Shown here piece after piece: positions 1 through 35,256 of a stretch of DNA of 64,000 bases; positions within the stretch are counted from its first letter, which is position 1, and the number at the start of each line of letters is the position of its first letter. The DNA lies in the NCBI GenBank assembly GCA_963740355.1, contig CAVUDW010000002.1, forward strand, positions 2,048,001-2,112,000, given 5' to 3'. This DNA is from an uncultured Gemmatimonadaceae bacterium (lineage in GTDB: Bacteria > Gemmatimonadota > Gemmatimonadetes > Gemmatimonadales > Gemmatimonadaceae). The notes beneath the pieces are model-generated. The model was given only the letters and a program-made list of their open reading frames with translations. It had not been told where the DNA came from and ran no database searches. Position numbers and translations under genes: made by a program.

Positions 1-1867
1 TGTCGTCGAGCAGCACCAGGTCCGCAGCTTCACGCGCCACGTCGGTTCCGGTGCGGCCCATCGCCACACCGATGTCAGCTTGTGAGAGGGCAGGCGCATC
101 GTTCACGCCGTCGCCGGTCATGGCCACGAACTGCCCCTTTGCCTGCAGGGCGGCCACGATTCGAATCTTCTGCGCCGGATCGACGCGCGCATAGATCCGC
201 GTCTCGAGCACGCGCTCCGCGAGTGCGGCGTCGTCCATCGCCAGCAAGTCGCGCCCCGTCAGCAGGGCGCGCTGGTCGTCGGCGCCGATAATGCCGATCT
301 CCCGCGCGATCGACTCGGCGGTCTCGGCATGATCACCGGTGATCATCACGGTCGCGATCCCCGCCGCATGGCAGGCTGCAATCGCTGGTGCCGACTCGGC
401 ACGGGCCGGGTCCATCAGGCCCACGCAGCCGAGAATCTCGACGTCGGCTGAAATCGTGTCGTCCGGCAACAGGCCAGCCACGGTCCTCCGCGCGAATGCA
501 ATCACGCGCAAGCCGGACCGCGCCATCGCCTCGGCTTCGTGCTGCAACTCGGGGGCGTGCACGAGCAGCAGCTCCGGCGCTCCCTTCGTGTACGCGATGG
601 CGCTGCTGCCATCACCCGCGGCGTGCACGGTGGTCATCCGCTTGCGATCGGAGGTGAACGACAGCGTTGCGGTGCGGGGCGTTTGCAACTCGAGCTCGCG
701 CCGCGCGAATCCGTTGCTTTCCGCGTACATGGCCAGCGCGACTTCCGTCGGCTCGCCCTTCGCACCATCGGCGGCGGTGACATCGACGTCGTTGCAGAGT
801 GCCATCGCCGTCAGCAGTCCGGGAAGATCGACGGCACGCGCGTCCACCACGGTCATGCGGTTCTGCGTCAGCGTCCCCGTCTTGTCGGAGCAGATGTAGG
901 TCACCGATCCGAGTGTCTCAACGGCCGGGAGCCGACGAATCAGAGCCTGGTGCCGCACCATCCGGCGCGCGCCAATCGCCAGCAATACCGTCACGACGGC
1001 CGGCATCGCCTCAGGGATCGCTGCCACGGCGAGGCTGATCGCCGTCATCAGCATCAGCACGGCACGTTCGCCGCGCAACACGCCGGCGGTGAAGACGATG
1101 ACACAGATGGCGATGGCGACCAGCGCGAGCGTGCGGCTGACCCGTGCCAGCCGACGCTGCAACGGTGTTGTGAGTGGCGCCACACCAGAGATCAACCCGG
1201 CGATCTTGCCGATTTCGGTGGCACCGCCAGTCGCGACGACGATGCCGCGCGCTGATCCGCGGGTGGCGATAGTGCCGCTGAACGCCATGTTCAGTTGGTC
1301 CCCGAGTGGTGCGCTGGCGTCACTCACGAGGTCGAGCGTCTTGTGCACCGCGACCGACTCTCCGGTGAGCGCAGATTCGTCCACCTCGAGGTCGCTCAGC
1401 GCGGTCAGCCGAACATCGGCGGCCACGCGCGCGCCACCTTCCAGTCGGATGAGGTCGCCGACGACCAGCTCACGCGCAGGCAGCAGGCGAGTCACAGCAC
1501 CACGGATCACCGTCACCTCGGACGCTGCCATCTTGCGCAGTTCGCCGACGGCGCGTGCTGCTCGGAGCTCCTGCGTAAAGCCGATCAGCGCATTGAGCAC
1601 GACGATCAACGCGATCATCCAGGCATCTGATGCGTCACCGACTGCCACTGAAATTGCCGCGGCCGCCAGCAACAGCAGGATCATGACGTCACGGAATTGC
1701 GCCAACAGCAGTTGCGGCCACGAGGCGACAGCGTGTTCAGCGACTTCGTTCGGTCCGTCCCTGGCGAGTCGAGCGGCGGCTTCGGATTCGGTCAGTCCTG
1801 TCGAAGCATTTGTCTCGATCGTGTTCGCCACGGCATCGGGCGTCAGCGCTGGCCACTGCATTGTCAT
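1..1867 (-). CDS. Cation-transporting P-type ATPase (P2A, Ca2+-type); 3' end runs off the window
   Basis: Absent from the ORF track because it has no stop in the window. Manual translation from ATG 1867 gives MTMQWPALT... with TGES, IPEAMP (PEGL-like), DKTGT phosphorylation site, KGAPE, MITGD and GDGVNDAPAL motifs. Confidence 0.93.
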   Translation of the reverse strand, partial: MTMQWPALTPDAVANTIETNASTGLTESEAAARLARDGPNEVAEHAVASWPQLLLAQFRDVMILLLLAAAAISVAVGDASDAWMIALIVVLNALIGFTQELRAARAVGELRKMAASEVTVIRGAVTRLLPARELVVGDLIRLEGGARVAADVRLTALSDLEVDESALTGESVAVHKTLDLVSDASAPLGDQLNMAFSGTIATRGSARGIVVATGGATEIGKIAGLISGVAPLTTPLQRRLARVSRTLALVAIAICVIVFTAGVLRGERAVLMLMTAISLAVAAIPEAMPAVVTVLLAIGARRMVRHQALIRRLPAVETLGSVTYICSDKTGTLTQNRMTVVDARAVDLPGLLTAMALCNDVDVTAADGAKGEPTEVALAMYAESNGFARRELELQTPRTATLSFTSDRKRMTTVHAAGDGSSAIAYTKGAPELLLVHAPELQHEAEAMARSGLRVIAFARRTVAGLLPDDTISADVEILGCVGLMDPARAESAPAIAACHAAGIATVMITGDHAETAESIAREIGIIGADDQRALLTGRDLLAMDDAALAERVLETRIYARVDPAQKIRIVAALQAKGQFVAMTGDGVNDAPALSQADIGVAMGRTGTDVAREAADLVLLDD

Positions 1868-20708: not shown

Positions 20709-20890
20709 CTGGTATATCAACGCAGTTGGCCTCCCATTGGGCTGACTTCGCCGAAGAAAAGTAACTTGGCAGTTCTACCGATTGACCGTTCGATAGCACG
20801 AAAATTCGCGGGCGACGGCGATGATGCCGGCGTACAAGCTGGTGGTTCAGGTCCTCGCGTTTTGCCCCCTTCATTCCATGAGGAGTCCAA

Positions 20891-21782
<892 letters not shown>

Positions 21783-24399: not shown

Positions 24400-24468
24400 T
24401 TCGATCGTGAAGGATTGGCGCGCAAATCGAGATTCCGTGTTGTGCACCGCTCCTAAAAAATCTGTGGA

Positions 24469-24755
24469 GGGGAGCGCACGGAGCTCACGGAGTGCTCCAG
24501 TAGCCGGCGAATTCTGATTCGCGACCAACTGAGAAGGGTTTGTTGGATGCAGAATTTCTACCGGTAATCCCTTGCTTCGTTTACAGTCGTTCTTGGCGCT
24601 GCACGGCTGGTTGCACCCGGCGCACTCCGTGAGCTCCGTGGCCTCCCCCTCACAAGTTGTTAACGTGGCGCGACGCCGATGCCGGCCACTGGCGCATTGC
24701 GTCAGCTCCGGCTCTCTCCCTCACCAGCTATTAACGGGGCGCGACGCCGATGCCG
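24469..24755 (-). mobile_element. Non-coding element carrying the same ends as the GxxExxY element (MITE/REP-like derivative)
   Basis: 24469-24499 and 24601-24649 match the right and left flanks of the GxxExxY gene. A degenerate tandem copy of the left end spans 24619-24755 (period about 72 nt). Confidence 0.6.
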
Positions 24756-30977: not shown

Positions 30978-32477
30978 ATGTGGCGCTCCCTCCTGCTGGT
31001 TGTCGTGCTGGCTCCGTTGACGGCGTGTGCAACGCTGTCGAACACGGCGCGCAGCTACCTGACGGCGCCGAATGGATTGCAGGTCGACGATGACCGTGTG
31101 CGGTCGCTGCTGCAGCGTGGTCGTGCTGACTCGGCACTGCGCGCGGTCGGGAACCGGAAGTCGTCACTGAGCCCGGATGACCGCTTGCTGCGGCTGCTCT
31201 ATCAGGGCACCGCAGCGCGGTATGCCGGCAAGCATCGGGAATCGGGCGCTTTTTTCGACCAGGCGTATGCTGTCAGCGAGGATCGCTACACGAAGAGCGT
31301 CAGCCGCACCGCTGCGTCGATGGTCACCAATGACTATGCGCTGCCGTACACGGCGGGGCGTAACGAACGGTTGCTGCTGCACTACAATGCGCTGCTGGCG
31401 TGGAGCGCCGCGGGAGATGCGGACGCTGCGACTGTCGAGGCGCGCCGACTGGTGGCGTTGCTGGCGAGTTTCGGAGAGCCAGATGCCGATGAACGTCCGA
31501 TGCGCGCGACGATGCATGCCGTGGCGGCCGCGGCATTCGAACAATCGCATGACTGGACCGATGCCGATGTCGCGCGCCGGAATGCCATCAGGCTTGGTGC
31601 AGTGCTCGACAGTGCCTGGCAGGCGCCGGCCGACTCGGAAGGGGATGTCGTGATCGTCGTGGAACGAGGCGACGTGGCGCACAAGGTTGCGGTGGGCCTC
31701 ACGGTGCCGATCTACACCGGCGACAATGCGAACCCGAACAGCAGTGGCTTCGCTGCGCAGCGCATGATGGCCGACTTCGGCGCGCTCCGGAACGGTGGGA
31801 TCTGGTGGGACGATACTCCATCGTGGCGCTTCACCGAGACGCGGTACGCGCCATGGCAGGGCGCGCGTGCGAGTTATCTGCTCGACATGAGCTGGCCGGT
31901 GCTGCGGCGCGCGCCGACGCTTGGTGTTGGCGCGGTGCACGTGTTGTCGGATGCGGGGACCCCGGACCAGGCGGTCGTGAGTGCCAGCGTGAGTGATGCG
32001 CTCGCGGCCGACTATCGTCGTGATCGCGGCGCCATCCTGTCGCGCACCGTCACGCGCGCGGCGAGCAAGTATCTCGCGGCACGCGCGCTGGAAGCGGCGG
32101 CGGAAGCCGCAGCGTCGAAGGGCGACGACTCGGGCGACAAGAAGAAGAAGTCGAAGAAGGACGACGACGCGAAACGCGCCGCGGGCATGATGGCGCGCCT
32201 GTTTGCGAATGCGACCACCACGTTGCTGGAGCGCGCTGACACGCGCGGCTGGACGCTGCTGCCTGGGTCGGTGTCGGTGGTGCGTATGCGAATCCCCGCC
32301 GGCACGCACGAATTGCTCGTGGATGCGGCGGGGACGCGTCAACTCAGCCTGCCGGGTGTCGTCGTTCGCGGTGGCGGGACGACGGTGGTTTCAGCACGGC
32401 TCTGGCGTGAGCCCGGCGAGGGAGTCCGCTCGATGGTAGAGCGCACCGCCACCCACGAGCCCGCGCCACAGCGCTGA
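30978..32477 (+). CDS. COG3014-like lipoprotein
   Basis: Lipobox LTAC; 'YTAGRNERLLLHY', 'DAATVEARR', 'ERADTRGWTLLP'; operonic with lpoB. Confidence 0.8.
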   Translation: MWRSLLLVVVLAPLTACATLSNTARSYLTAPNGLQVDDDRVRSLLQRGRADSALRAVGNRKSSLSPDDRLLRLLYQGTAARYAGKHRESGAFFDQAYAVSEDRYTKSVSRTAASMVTNDYALPYTAGRNERLLLHYNALLAWSAAGDADAATVEARRLVALLASFGEPDADERPMRATMHAVAAAAFEQSHDWTDADVARRNAIRLGAVLDSAWQAPADSEGDVVIVVERGDVAHKVAVGLTVPIYTGDNANPNSSGFAAQRMMADFGALRNGGIWWDDTPSWRFTETRYAPWQGARASYLLDMSWPVLRRAPTLGVGAVHVLSDAGTPDQAVVSASVSDALAADYRRDRGAILSRTVTRAASKYLAARALEAAAEAAASKGDDSGDKKKKSKKDDDAKRAAGMMARLFANATTTLLERADTRGWTLLPGSVSVVRMRIPAGTHELLVDAAGTRQLSLPGVVVRGGGTTVVSARLWREPGEGVRSMVERTATHEPAPQR

Positions 32478-32595: not shown

Positions 32596-32724
32596 TCAGC
32601 GAGCATAGCGACCTCTGGCACGGGACGTGCTTGGATAGCTGATGCGGGCCGGTTTCGGTCGACGCCAATGCTGCATGAGAACTGCGGGGGCCATCATCGT
32701 GACCAGCAGAACCACTGCAATCAT
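32596..32724 (-). CDS. Possible 42-aa single-TM small protein
   Basis: AGAGG upstream; hydrophobic N-half (MIAVVLLVTMMAPAVLM) and Arg-rich tail. Confidence 0.35.
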   Translation of the reverse strand: MIAVVLLVTMMAPAVLMQHWRRPKPARISYPSTSRARGRYAR

Positions 32725-32806
32725 CTGAGCCTCTGACGCAAAGAGTCTGGACGAGCCGGCACATCGGCGTGCCGGCACATCCCACTCCGCGCAAGTCTCG
32801 GTCGCT

Positions 32807-32961
32807 GTCAGCCGGGCTTGAGCCCTCCTGTCGCGTCCGCTCCCTGCCGGGGCGCCGTACCCCCATCAGACGCCCCGATCCGCGGGAGGTAATGCGGTTC
32901 GGTTCTCAGCCCACTCCGCTCCCTCGGGGCCACATCTCCCGTCCGCTGACGGCTGGCTGAC
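32807..32961 (-). ncRNA. Candidate structured RNA, family not recognised
   Basis: Closing helix GUCAGCC/GGCUGAC, three internal stems, G-U pairs that favour the minus strand, and many GGA motifs. Confidence 0.45.
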
Positions 32962-32987: not shown

Positions 32988-33652
32988 AACAGCAATGGGG
33001 GGGAGGCCACGGAGCTCACTGAGTGCGACCAGCGCTACCAGCCGTGCTTCGCCGCCATCGCTACGGCGGAGAAATCCATCATGGGGAGGCGGCGCCAATG
33101 AGAGGTCTGTTCCGGTCACCAGAGGACGAGTTGGTCGAAACCGTGATTGGCTGTGCGATCGAGGTGCACCGGCACCTCGGACCTGGCCTTCTGGAGTCGA
33201 CATACGCCGCATGTCTTGCGTATGAGCTGCGACTGAAGGGGATTCCGTTTCAGACCGAGGTTCCGCTTCCCGTTCGATACAAGGACATGCAGCTCGAATG
33301 CGGTTATCGCACCGACATGATCGTCGACTCCCGCCTGATCATTGAGATCAAAAGCGTCGAGCGCCTGATTCGATTGCATTCCTCACAACTCATGACGTAC
33401 CTGCGCCTCTCCGGCATCCGCCTCGGATTTCTTTTCAACTTCAACGCCCCGCGTCTCGTCGACGGCATTCGTCGCATCAAGCTCTGGTTCTAACAGCTGT
33501 AGTTGTCCTGCGGTGCACGATCGGCTGCCAATGGAGCACTCCGTGAGCTCCGTGTGCTCCCCCCCCCAATGCAGTTTGCGAAAGCACGCGATGCACGATC
33601 GGCTGCCAATGGAGCACTCCGTGAGCTCCGTGTGCTCCCCCCCAATGCTGTT
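32988..33652 (+). mobile_element. GxxExxY cassette bounded by 39-bp imperfect inverted repeats
   Basis: 32988-33026 matches the reverse complement of 33614-33652 at 35/39 positions. No target-site duplication seen. Confidence 0.6.
33098..33493 (+). CDS. GxxExxY protein (PD-(D/E)XK nuclease superfamily)
   Basis: 'IGCAIEVHRHLGPGLLESTY', 'YRTDMIVD..IIEIKSVE', 'QLMTYL...GFLFNF'. Confidence 0.93.
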   Translation: MRGLFRSPEDELVETVIGCAIEVHRHLGPGLLESTYAACLAYELRLKGIPFQTEVPLPVRYKDMQLECGYRTDMIVDSRLIIEIKSVERLIRLHSSQLMTYLRLSGIRLGFLFNFNAPRLVDGIRRIKLWF

Positions 33653-33674
33653 TGCGAAGGCACGCGCTGCACGA
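33514..33674 (+). repeat. Tandem duplication (78 and 76 nt units) containing GCACTCCGTGAGCTCCGTG
   Basis: Near-identical units starting at 33514 and 33592; they differ mainly in a C9 versus C7 tract. Confidence 0.92.
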
Positions 33675-33730
33675 ACGCTGCGACTGGCACGCACTCCGGC
33701 TAGCTTGCTCGAGCCCTCACCGACTCGATC

Positions 33731-34024
33731 GTGCTCTCCTTTCTGCTGCTGACACTGATTGTCGCGATTCTCGCCGGCGCCCGAGCGACGGGGCCGGGGT
33801 GGGCGGCACGCCTCGGACGCGCGCTGCGGTGGGGCGGAATGGTGGGACTGGTGGGATTCCTCGGCGGATTTTTCGGGCCGATGCTCTTCGCCCCCAGCGC
33901 CAACCAGGGGCCGATGGTCGGGATCTTCCTCACGGGACCGCTCGGCTTCGTGCTGGGCTTCATCATCGGTGCCGTACGCGAGATCCGCGACAGCCGAAAG
34001 CCTCACGACCCGCTCGCACTGTGA
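33731..34024 (+). CDS. Small membrane protein
   Basis: Three hydrophobic segments; 'GFFGPMLFAPSANQGPMVGIFLTGPLG'; GTGA overlap with the next gene. Confidence 0.72.
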   Translation: MLSFLLLTLIVAILAGARATGPGWAARLGRALRWGGMVGLVGFLGGFFGPMLFAPSANQGPMVGIFLTGPLGFVLGFIIGAVREIRDSRKPHDPLAL

Positions 34025-35256
34025 AAGACGTCATCATCATCGGCGCCGGCGCCGCCGGCACCATGGCCGCCATCTTCGCCGCCCGCAGCGGCGCGAGGGT
34101 GCGCCTGCTCGAACGCACCAGGGACGGCGGGCGAAAGATCCTCATCAGTGGCGGTGGGCGATGCAATGTGCTGCCGTCGCGGGTCGATGAAGCGCGCTTC
34201 GTCACCGACTCGTCGCCGAATATCCTCCGCAAGATCATCCGCTCCTGGCCGCTCGCCGAGCAGATCGCATTCTTCGAGCAGGACCTCGGTATTCCACTCG
34301 AACACGAGGAAGAGTCGCTCAAGCTCTTTCCCGCCTCGCACAAGGCGCGCGATGTCCGAGATGGTCTCATCGACTGCGCCGTGCGCAACGGCGTGCAATT
34401 CCTGACCGAGGTCGCGGTCAACGACATCGTGCCAGATGGCGCACGCTGGCACGTGCACTGCGACGATGGTCGCGTACTCGATGCCGACGCCGTGATCGTG
34501 GCGACCGGTGGGTACTCGGTGCCGAACACCGGGAGCGATGGTCGCGGCCTGGCGATCCTGCGCAAGCTGGGCCACACCATACACCCCACCTATGCCGCGC
34601 TGACGCCGGTCACCGTGGAGCCCAACGCCTTCACGGAGCTCTCCGGCATCTCGCTGCCGGTCACGATCACCGCGAAGTCCGGCAAGGAATCGGCGCGTGC
34701 CACCGGCGGCTTCCTGTTCACGCACCGTGGATACAGCGGTCCATCGGTCCTGAACGTGTCGCACGTCGCCGTCCGATCGAAGGCGAGCCATGTCGAACGG
34801 GCCGCACTGTCGGTCAAATGGACGCCGCTCGATGACGACGCCTGGAACCAGCGGTTGGCCCCGCATGGCGCACGGACCGTCTCTGGTGCCGTCCGCGCCG
34901 AGCTACCGGAACGACTGGCCAGCGTGCTCATCGACAGGGCAGGGGTCGACCCGCTGCGCACGCTGAGCGAATTGCGGCGCGACGAACGGCTGCGCCTGAT
35001 CGAGACACTCGTGCGCGGCGACCTCCCGTGGGCGGGGGATGAGGGCTACAAGAAGGCGGAGGTCACTGGCGGCGGAGTGAGTCTCTCCGAGATCGACCAT
35101 CGGACGATGGAGAGTCGCCTGCACCCAGGCCTCTTCCTGTGTGGCGAGATTCTCGACGCCTTCGGCCCGATCGGCGGCTACAACTTCCTCTGGGCGTGGT
35201 GCACGGGACGTGCGGCCGGCATTGCGGCCGCTGTTCCGGCGGGCATGGACAAGTGA
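34021..35256 (+). CDS. HI0933/YhiN (BaiN) family NAD(P)/FAD-dependent oxidoreductase
   Basis: 'IIGAGAAG', 'GRKILISGGGRCN', 'ATGGYS.P.TGSDG', 'FTHRGYSGP', 'GGYNF'. Confidence 0.93.
   Translation: MKDVIIIGAGAAGTMAAIFAARSGARVRLLERTRDGGRKILISGGGRCNVLPSRVDEARFVTDSSPNILRKIIRSWPLAEQIAFFEQDLGIPLEHEEESLKLFPASHKARDVRDGLIDCAVRNGVQFLTEVAVNDIVPDGARWHVHCDDGRVLDADAVIVATGGYSVPNTGSDGRGLAILRKLGHTIHPTYAALTPVTVEPNAFTELSGISLPVTITAKSGKESARATGGFLFTHRGYSGPSVLNVSHVAVRSKASHVERAALSVKWTPLDDDAWNQRLAPHGARTVSGAVRAELPERLASVLIDRAGVDPLRTLSELRRDERLRLIETLVRGDLPWAGDEGYKKAEVTGGGVSLSEIDHRTMESRLHPGLFLCGEILDAFGPIGGYNFLWAWCTGRAAGIAAAVPAGMDK

Follow-up and report, generated by a model that had tools for sequence, protein, structure and literature searches.

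The subject of this study is a small gene of the GxxExxY type in the genome of an uncultured Gemmatimonadaceae bacterium (assembly G000; 5.45 Mb, 65% G+C, 5 contigs), together with the inverted repeats between which it lies. The window, that is, the whole stretch of 64,000 nucleotides (nt) that was analysed, is G000:C2:2048001-2112000, and the gene sits in a cassette at 32988-33690 of this window. We report that the arms of the cassette belong to a family of hairpin repeats dispersed in the same genome, that GxxExxY genes of many other genomes are bracketed by arms of a common design, and that, within the genus, a repeat type present in high numbers has its counterpart in the arms of a resident gene.

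The cassette and its gene

The features of the cassette, and of a copy of its repeat without a gene, are as follows (positions in the window):

32988-33026, plus strand: left arm, outer part, with AACAGCAATG as terminal motif, a run of G and a pair of 7-mers at 9-nt spacing (CACGGAG CT CACTGAG)
33027-33062, plus strand: left arm, inner part, weakly complementary to the right-arm inner parts (65-nt arms, 75%)
33083-33089, plus strand: Shine-Dalgarno-like GGGGAGG, 8 nt 5' of the ATG, read directly
33098-33493, plus strand: GxxExxY / PDDEXK_3 gene, 131 amino acids (aa), with G30-x-x-E33-x-x-Y36, D73 and E83-x-K85 conserved
33510-33577, minus strand: proximal right arm, with inner part, core 33536-33554, C-run and CAATGCAGTT end
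33588-33655, minus strand: distal right arm, a tandem copy 78 nt beyond the proximal arm, core 33614-33632
33656-33690, minus strand: third right-arm unit, beginning only (inner segment, without core; 33630-33677 repeat, 85%)
24455-24665, no strand assigned: gene-less copy of the cassette's repeat family, left core 24477-24495, right core 24622-24640, 126 nt between
24684-24755, minus strand: degenerate tandem right arm of this gene-less copy, core at 24694 with 5 mismatches

Compared without gaps, the left arm (32988-33026) agrees with the distal right arm (33614-33652) at 35 of 39 positions and with the proximal one at 27 of 39 (30 nt at 90% in a repeat search). The right end is duplicated in tandem: 33588-33643 repeats 33510-33565 at 98%, 78 nt further on, and 33630-33677 repeats 33554-33601 at 85%, 76 nt further on. 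Five copies of the arm core are present in the window at up to 3 mismatches (starts 24477(+), 24622(-), 33008(+), 33536(-) and 33614(-)), where 0.11 are expected and none of 100 shuffles reaches five. The gene-less copy at 24455-24665 folds as a single long hairpin (DNA, -51.5 kcal/mol, z -5.75), and gene-less copies also carry segments that resemble, as judged by eye, the inner part of the left arm. The GxxExxY gene is the sole open reading frame (ORF) between the arms, and no transposase was found in the cassette or beside it, its neighbours being a protein without Pfam match, a 97-aa protein also without Pfam match, and an HI0933-like flavoprotein.

The protein matches PF13366 (PDDEXK_3) with E 2e-41 and 141.5 bits (cut-off 22) over profile positions 2-117 of 117, and TIGR04256 (GxxExxY) with E 5e-42 and 142.9 bits (cut-off 35) over the full profile; PF13366 is its only Pfam match at E<=0.01, with no HUH Y1 and no GIY-YIG family. 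Residues G28, G30, E33, Y36, L44, D73, K85 and R126 are invariant in 49 sequences, and E83 is at least 90% conserved. The AlphaFold2 model (predicted local distance difference test score 93.1) has the elements H-H-E-E-E-H-E of a PD-(D/E)XK core, and its structural neighbours are all PD-(D/E)XK nucleases, none of them outstanding (3ijm, Z 8.0; BpuSI, 7.8; Cas4 SSO0001, 7.5; Hjc, 6.2; best Foldseek E-value 2.9e-3). As modelled, the protein thus has the core fold, the D...(D/E)-x-K motif and the helix-1 glutamate of the PD-(D/E)XK superfamily. A sequence search of the PDB gave no match for the protein at E<=1, nor for the 49-sequence profile at E<=10; PHROGs gave no match, and PADLOC nothing for this protein and weak Cas4-like or PD-(D/E)XK rows for the second GxxExxY gene of the genome. 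The ratio of nonsynonymous to synonymous substitution rates between the orthologues of two related genomes, G011 and G017, is 0.022, which indicates purifying selection. In the 2012 survey of the PD-(D/E)XK superfamily, the function of PDDEXK_3 is listed as unknown and 'multiple transfers' are recorded for it (PMC3424549).

A preliminary description of this DNA had already pointed to the 39-nt inverted arms with 35 identities, to both tandem spacings at the right end (78 and 76 nt), to the lack of a transposase and to the PD-(D/E)XK fold of GxxExxY proteins, and all of this is borne out. It had also counted six copies of the core, of which five hold at up to 3 mismatches, the sixth being the degenerate arm at 24694 with its 5 mismatches.

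The genes that flank the cassette, at 30978-32477 and at 34024-35256 (the flavoprotein), are adjacent across the genus. Among 20 genomes of the genus, the cassette lies between them in four, G000, G011, G017 and G006 (the gene being frameshifted in G006), and 14 have a cassette-free site with 35-110 nt between conserved anchors; the other two are uninformative because of contig ends, which leaves 18. On the flavoprotein tree the four carriers fall in one clade of 11 genomes (support 89/90), where they are interleaved with non-carriers, so that at least three gains or losses must have occurred. Since the nuclease proteins of G000, G011 and G017 form a single clade (Shimodaira-Hasegawa-like approximate likelihood ratio test, 97), one old insertion followed by losses is the simplest reading, and the gene-bearing copy is a long-term, vertically inherited resident, with syntenic orthologues in G011 and G017. 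The nuclease diverges faster than its flavoprotein neighbour (59.5% identity versus 80-82%). Outside that clade its nearest relatives belong to other phyla (58-61% identity), in agreement with the 'multiple transfers' recorded for the family (PMC3424549). The genus as a whole has 49 GxxExxY loci at 14 chromosomal sites, the largest site clusters holding 14 and 11 loci and eight being singletons.

Other observations concern the surroundings of the cassette. The 97-aa neighbour is a hydrophobic ORF (33731-34024, plus strand, no Pfam match) that stands at the cassette site only in the three genomes with an intact cassette, G000, G011 and G017 (50% identity); neither the empty sites nor G006 have it. 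Upstream of the cassette, the intergenic stretch 32700-32900 is conserved across the genus (…gagcctctgacgcaaag…ggcacatcggcgtgcc…ccactccgcgcaagt.tcgg…cagacgc…gaggtaatg) and has no Rfam match, no Rfam family reaching its gathering score anywhere in the window. Of the sequencing runs listed, none of them RNA, no run contained more than 0.17 of the sampled words; four runs yielded short low-depth contigs, none spanning the cassette and without joints, and are uninformative on excision or expression.

Arms at GxxExxY genes of other genomes

To detect inverted repeats, the 500-nt flank before each gene was compared with the 500-nt flank behind it (400-nt flanks in the cross-phylum set). At E<0.01 such repeats are present at 18 of 29 loci from 41 related genomes (13 of 29 at E<1e-4), at 14 of 20 further loci of relatives, and at 43 of 77 cross-phylum loci (31 of 77 at E<1e-4), this last set spanning 16 named phyla and including two archaeal loci. 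As a control, 400 random stretches of the source genome (500+380+500) gave 7 with E<0.01 and one with E<1e-4; these stretches are mostly coding, which makes the control lenient towards our finding, and the difference remains large all the same.

Although the arms of different loci differ in sequence, they share a common design, with two to four 7-mers every 8-9 nt and a short AAC..GTT-like outer motif. The 7-mers include CACGGAG, CACAGAG, CACGAAG, CGCGGAG, CGCAAAG, CGCGGAA and CGCAACG. With a strict pattern, at least one 7-mer array lies within 300 nt of 92 of 129 genes, and arrays in the canonical orientation are found on both sides in 46 of the 129, the median distance to the gene being 35 nt upstream and 25 nt downstream.

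These figures bring to mind a published precedent for another reading. In the Ssn system the gene of a GIY-YIG nuclease is flanked by its dispersed hairpin repeat, and the nuclease modulates transformation; a repeat is near 71% of the homologues and on both sides of 42%, figures near our 92/129 and 46/129 (PMC11893778). One may thus imagine a partnership of the Ssn/NTS kind without mobilisation, in which the GxxExxY nuclease cuts or binds the repeats for some purpose of the cell (recombination control, DNA uptake or chromosome handling) or for its own regulation, the repeats themselves being spread by recombination or slippage. The gene-bearing copy is indeed old, vertically inherited and under strong purifying selection, and the arms do multiply locally through tandem duplication, all of which would suit such a partnership. 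We nevertheless think it unlikely, first because no competence or recombination genes are linked to the cassette among the neighbouring genes in the window, and second because of the dispersal of the repeats, to which we return below.

The arm type (CAC or CGC) follows the protein. On the tree of the 129 proteins, 90 of which are labelled, it changes 11 times, as compared with 24.4 +/- 1.8 for shuffled labels (minimum 17 of 300); in the order-level subset alone it is weakly clustered, with 5 changes against a shuffled mean of 7.9 and a minimum of 4. Proteins at least 48% identical to that of the window have CAC arms in 56 cases, CGC arms in 8, none in 19 and a tie in one, while those less than 40% identical have CAC arms in 2 cases, CGC arms in 14 and none in 10. 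Since gene and arms are physically linked, this tracking reflects co-inheritance of the cassette rather than function.

One contig of a relative carries two cassettes in opposite orientation, about 7 kb apart (L044 and L045; G012:C309:13581-13928 and 20825-21172). The two share the same 200-nt flanks and the same detected arms, pointing to a recent inverted duplication.

Dispersed repeats and their resident genes

In the source genome, the 16-nt core of the cassette's repeat family (family D) occurs 114 times at up to 2 mismatches, in 42 clusters, 32 of which have at least two copies. A gene lies between the arms at one cluster only, the window locus; the other elements are gene-less, and their cores are 80-148 nt apart, versus 531 nt at the window locus. 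The usual unit can be written L(n)-centre-R(m), with arms of about 75 nt, often multiplied in tandem at a period of 74-78 nt, and a centre of 20-60 nt. Each arm has, in order from its outer end, AAC(T/A)GCAATG with a G-run, two 7-mers 9 nt apart (CACGGAG-CT-CACGGAG) and a looser inner segment, the terminal consensus being drawn from 48 element ends (24 simple left-right elements). There are subfamilies in which left and right arm variants are matched and centres conserved at unrelated sites, and therefore whole elements have been copied. None of 34 family-D loci lies inside our crude gene calls, which cover 39% of the genome and served only to tell inside from outside genes.

Three further families have the same 7-mer design: C (ACGCGGAGCCGCGGGG, 199 copies), E (GAACAGCCGCAGAAC, 95) and F (CGCAGAGACGCAGAG, 103). 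Together, the four make up about 200 clusters in the 5.45-Mb genome (seed at up to 2 mismatches, single matches counted). The genome has exactly two GxxExxY genes, that of the window and a second one at G000:C2:2026788 (locus L002), which adjoins an L3-centre-R element of family C, with some 80 nt between the gene and the element's right arm. Copies vary less in D and C, which have a resident gene, than in the orphan families E and F, exact seed matches amounting to 95 of 114 and 80 of 199 copies in the former, versus 17 of 95 and 15 of 103 in the latter. A search for a pseudogene remnant that might explain E and F found none in the genome (no remnant of a third gene at E<0.01). Relatives do hold genes with E-type arms (L017, L041) and with F-type arms (L018, L020, L025).

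The same genome offers an internal control, in the form of two Y1_Tnp (PF01797) genes located away from the GxxExxY gene. For both, the best NCBIfam model is 'REP-associated tyrosine transposase' (RAYT; REP, repetitive extragenic palindrome), at 79.7 and 60.8 bits, both below the cut-off of 80:

RAYT-like gene 1: locus L031, G000:C2:1529113-1532439, ORF 1156-1866, minus strand; family A three times on each side
RAYT-like gene 2: locus L032, G000:C3:373281-376601, ORF 1186-1860, minus strand; family B twice on each side

Families A (GATCAAGGGGTCAGAGATCTTGATC, about 150 copies) and B (CCGGTGACAGTGCAC, about 119 copies) are classical palindromic REPs, and the copies that bracket each RAYT-like gene are inverted, tandemly repeated and of a family proper to that gene. 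Considering the RAYT and GxxExxY layouts together, the four commonest repeat families therefore each have a gene in or next to one of their copies (two RAYT-like, two GxxExxY). The presence of the two Y1_Tnp genes could also be taken to mean that the RAYT-like transposases mobilise the 7-mer hairpins, the nuclease gene having merely been captured by one copy, the more so as hairpin doublets of the REPIN kind, which lack target-site duplications, are the presumed substrates of RAYTs (PMC3116915, PMC3337134). We consider this very improbable, since each RAYT-like gene has its own palindromic family, with no 7-mer copy within 57 kb (the nearest copies of family D or C are 57-450 kb away), and since the arms at GxxExxY genes of 16 phyla would be left unexplained.

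The association holds at the level of the phylum. In a sample of 201 genomes, G000 included, we counted arrays of the form CRCRRAG-N(1-2)-CRCRRAG, with the reversed pattern as a control. The 72 genomes with PF13366 have a median of 35 arrays (control 17) and the 129 without it a median of 14 (control 14). An excess of at least 30 arrays over the control is seen in 33 of the 72 genomes with the gene versus one of the 129 without it, the exception being G202; with four unpublished genomes removed, the figures are 32 of 70 and 1 of 127. Over the 201 genomes, the Spearman correlation between gene matches and arrays is 0.58.

Within the genus, 20 genomes were scored for three repeat types, each gene being typed by the same pattern within 300 nt and those matches being subtracted from the counts. 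The 21 combinations of genome and repeat type that include a like-armed gene have a median of 64 copies elsewhere, versus 13 for the 39 that do not; at least 40 copies are found in 16/21 versus 5/39, and at least 80 in 10/21 versus 2/39. Both exceptions with at least 80 copies (G009 for type A, G011 for type C) have genes with near-cognate arms (CGCAAGG, CGCGGAA). Moreover, two genome-specific families were predicted beforehand from the arms of single genes. For CGCAACG, the 7-mer in the arms of locus L037 in G017, that genome has 110 arrays and none of the other 19 has more than 7, its sister G011 having 7; for CGCGGAA, the 7-mer in the arms of locus L013 in G009, the latter genome has 54 arrays and none of the others more than 3. 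It is precisely such a lineage-specific burst of CGCAACG, 110 copies as against 7 in the sister, that a partnership without mobilisation leaves unexplained on its own, as it does the subfamilies of whole elements with matched arms and conserved centres at unrelated sites.

In the intervening sequences of 23S rRNA, an S23p (PF05635) ORF lies in the loop of a long inverted-repeat stem. The hairpin cassette might likewise be a general insertable vehicle, moved by host factors or by another enzyme, with GxxExxY as its commonest cargo. Such a vehicle would account for repeat families that exist without a gene (E and F; those of G001 and G202) and for the 97-aa gene that accompanies the cassette at its site in G000, G011 and G017. 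This explanation appears improbable to us, because 128 of the 129 gene-less genomes of the phylum sample are also without excess arrays and because the type of repeat goes with that of the resident gene's arms, both advance predictions included. In addition, no other gene was seen between family-D arms in G000, and no PF05635 gene is present in this genome.

Some further features of family D deserve mention. There are 'inside-out' copies, in which a right arm comes first and a left arm begins some 50 nt later, the outer ends facing each other and the flanking inner-arm sequence being conserved (all in G000: C2:713475-713995, C2:1891917-1892436, C2:362725, C2:1120940, C2:1695860, C3:826233 and C3:1069189). 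This unit, which at times recurs in tandem about every 261 nt, resembles an end-to-end junction or an element that has been circularly permuted. At G000:C2:1358790-1358870 and C2:1360235-1360310, palindromic REP hairpins of family B interrupt the family-D elements that stand on either side of an ordinary gene; neighbours without such an interruption would yield exact boundaries of REP insertion. Finally, GCAACT/AGTTGC hexamer runs of varying length abut family-D ends (for example at G000:C3:2511585-2511650, C2:1764504-1764570 and C3:1732470-1732500) and look like a microsatellite expansion of the terminal AACTGC motif.

A probable nuclease-and-repeat partnership among known systems

Our data directly support the layout and dispersal of the repeats, their folding as hairpins, the specific matching of gene and repeat both inside a genome and from one genome to another, a conserved active site and purifying selection on the gene; from these we infer that the nuclease itself spreads the repeats. 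We think that the partnership of gene and repeat probably includes nuclease-dependent spread, as with RAYT, and would give this a probability of roughly 0.55. The GxxExxY protein would be a small PD-(D/E)XK nuclease recognising its own kind of repeat, a hairpin element whose arms each carry two to four 7-mers (here CACGGAG) spaced 8-9 nt. It may bind the 7-mer arrays, different paralogues presumably reading different 7-mers, and cut at or near the arms, probably in an extruded hairpin or in single-stranded form, after which the hairpin could be copied to new intergenic sites by host replication or repair. Because the PD-(D/E)XK fold only hydrolyses DNA, host enzymes must complete any insertion. 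The gene in the loop of one element would represent the resident or master copy, on whose protein the approximately 30 gene-less hairpins of family D would depend for spread and upkeep, as REPINs do on RAYT.

Several points weigh against nuclease-dependent spread and should be acknowledged. To our knowledge, a PD-(D/E)XK hydrolase performs no strand transfer on its own and does not rejoin DNA. Whatever boundary offset was tried, the 24 simple gene-less elements showed no target-site duplication in the range of 3-8 nt, in line with what the preliminary description had stated, and no empty site could be resolved to the nucleotide, presence and absence being read between anchors only, as the intergenic DNA of the genus is too diverged. 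The second gene of G000 adjoins its element and is not embedded in it, and the orphan families E and F reach 95 and 103 copies with no GxxExxY gene. Arrays without a gene are also found in G001 (65, C-type) and in G202 (118), neither of which has a GxxExxY match even at E<=1. Conversely, G005 and G018 have a like-armed gene and yet few copies (21 and 10), and 37 of the 129 genes have no array under the strict pattern. The arms of the G011 and G017 orthologues read CACCGAG, whereas CACGGAG looks commoner, by eye, among the dispersed copies listed for G011. Finally, the genome-level tests count related genomes that are not independent, and fragmented assemblies may lose repeats and small repeat-flanked genes together.

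The preliminary description had proposed an autonomous/non-autonomous pair analogous to RAYT and REP with a different nuclease, to be checked on the flanks of GxxExxY genes, on the co-variation of protein and repeat and on empty-site alleles; repeats no more frequent near GxxExxY genes than elsewhere, together with a locus fixed and syntenic across relatives, were to count against it. The flanks (inverted repeats at 18/29, 14/20 and 43/77 loci versus 7/400 random stretches) and the co-variation (11 changes versus 24.4 shuffled) agree with this proposal. A specific pairing likewise stands, on the strength of bracketing, co-occurrence, cognate repeat type and the same layout at RAYT-like genes, but not every family may need a gene, E and F having none in G000. 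Gene-bearing and gene-less copies do coexist, although the former is a long-term syntenic resident in G011 and G017, which fits the term 'autonomous' less well. As for the alleles, 14 of the 18 informative genomes of the genus are cassette-free, none in a nucleotide-exact manner, so that the locus is syntenic in some relatives and empty in most. Such synteny does not speak against the analogy, because RAYT genes are also vertically inherited (PMC5581495).

It is conceivable, although we would not go so far as to call it probable, that, after RAYT/REPIN and Ssn/SRM, GxxExxY proteins supply the enzymes of a third class of nuclease-plus-repeat replicators, one that spans phyla, with each paralogue reading its own 7-mer, offered as a phased array in a hairpin arm, and that they are the source of a large share of the structured intergenic repeats in many bacterial and some archaeal genomes. 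If so, they would form a natural library of nucleases of about 130 aa with distinct, predictable DNA specificities. In any case GxxExxY / PDDEXK_3 genes are very common, and the DNA partner can be read from the flanks of each gene, which makes this a testable system. Should the functional link be true, it would explain where the plentiful intergenic hairpin repeats of many phyla come from, add a third enzyme fold to the few nuclease-and-repeat partnerships, and provide small nucleases whose targets are predictable from sequence. G000 is a good test bed in this respect, since it combines two GxxExxY systems, two classical RAYT-REP systems and two orphan families.

Nuclease-and-repeat partnerships as such are already known. 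In the literature searched, subscription journals and supplements being outside the search, we found no published account of the pairing of GxxExxY with a repeat, so that it is the GxxExxY version for which we found no description. Among known elements, the 23S rRNA intervening sequences resemble the cassette in having a small ORF in the loop of a long inverted-repeat stem, but the elements described here are intergenic, the window has no Rfam match and G000 has no PF05635 gene. Miniature inverted-repeat transposable elements and their parent insertion sequences share with it the terminal inverted repeats, the many short gene-less copies beside a gene-bearing copy and the subfamilies copied whole; here, in contrast, neither a DDE nor any other known transposase is present, target-site duplications are lacking, and the gene-bearing copy is single and syntenic.

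The Ssn-NTS/SRM system is closer, in that a small nuclease gene is tied, spatially and phylogenetically, to its own dispersed hairpin repeat, and repeat variants follow protein variants (PMC11893778). It differs in its fold, GIY-YIG instead of PD-(D/E)XK, and in the design of its repeat (PMC11893778). Furthermore, single-strand cutting near the repeat and an effect on transformation have been measured for Ssn (PMC11893778, Chenal et al. 2025), whereas we know the GxxExxY pair from sequence alone.

As compared with REP/REPIN-RAYT, the enzyme here is a 131-aa PD-(D/E)XK hydrolase and not an HUH Y1 (IS200/IS605-like) transposase, and the arms, of about 75 nt, consist of 7-mer arrays (8-9 nt period) with a terminal motif and form one long hairpin, whereas a REP is a single short palindrome. 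The likeness lies in the organisation: in both cases a low-copy gene is flanked by inverted, often tandem copies of a repeat that is also dispersed as intergenic hairpin doublets, and gene and repeat family co-occur across genomes (related ones, not independent). Both also combine a lack of target-site duplication with vertical inheritance and a gene of its own for each family, as described for RAYT in PMC3116915, PMC3337134 and PMC5581495.

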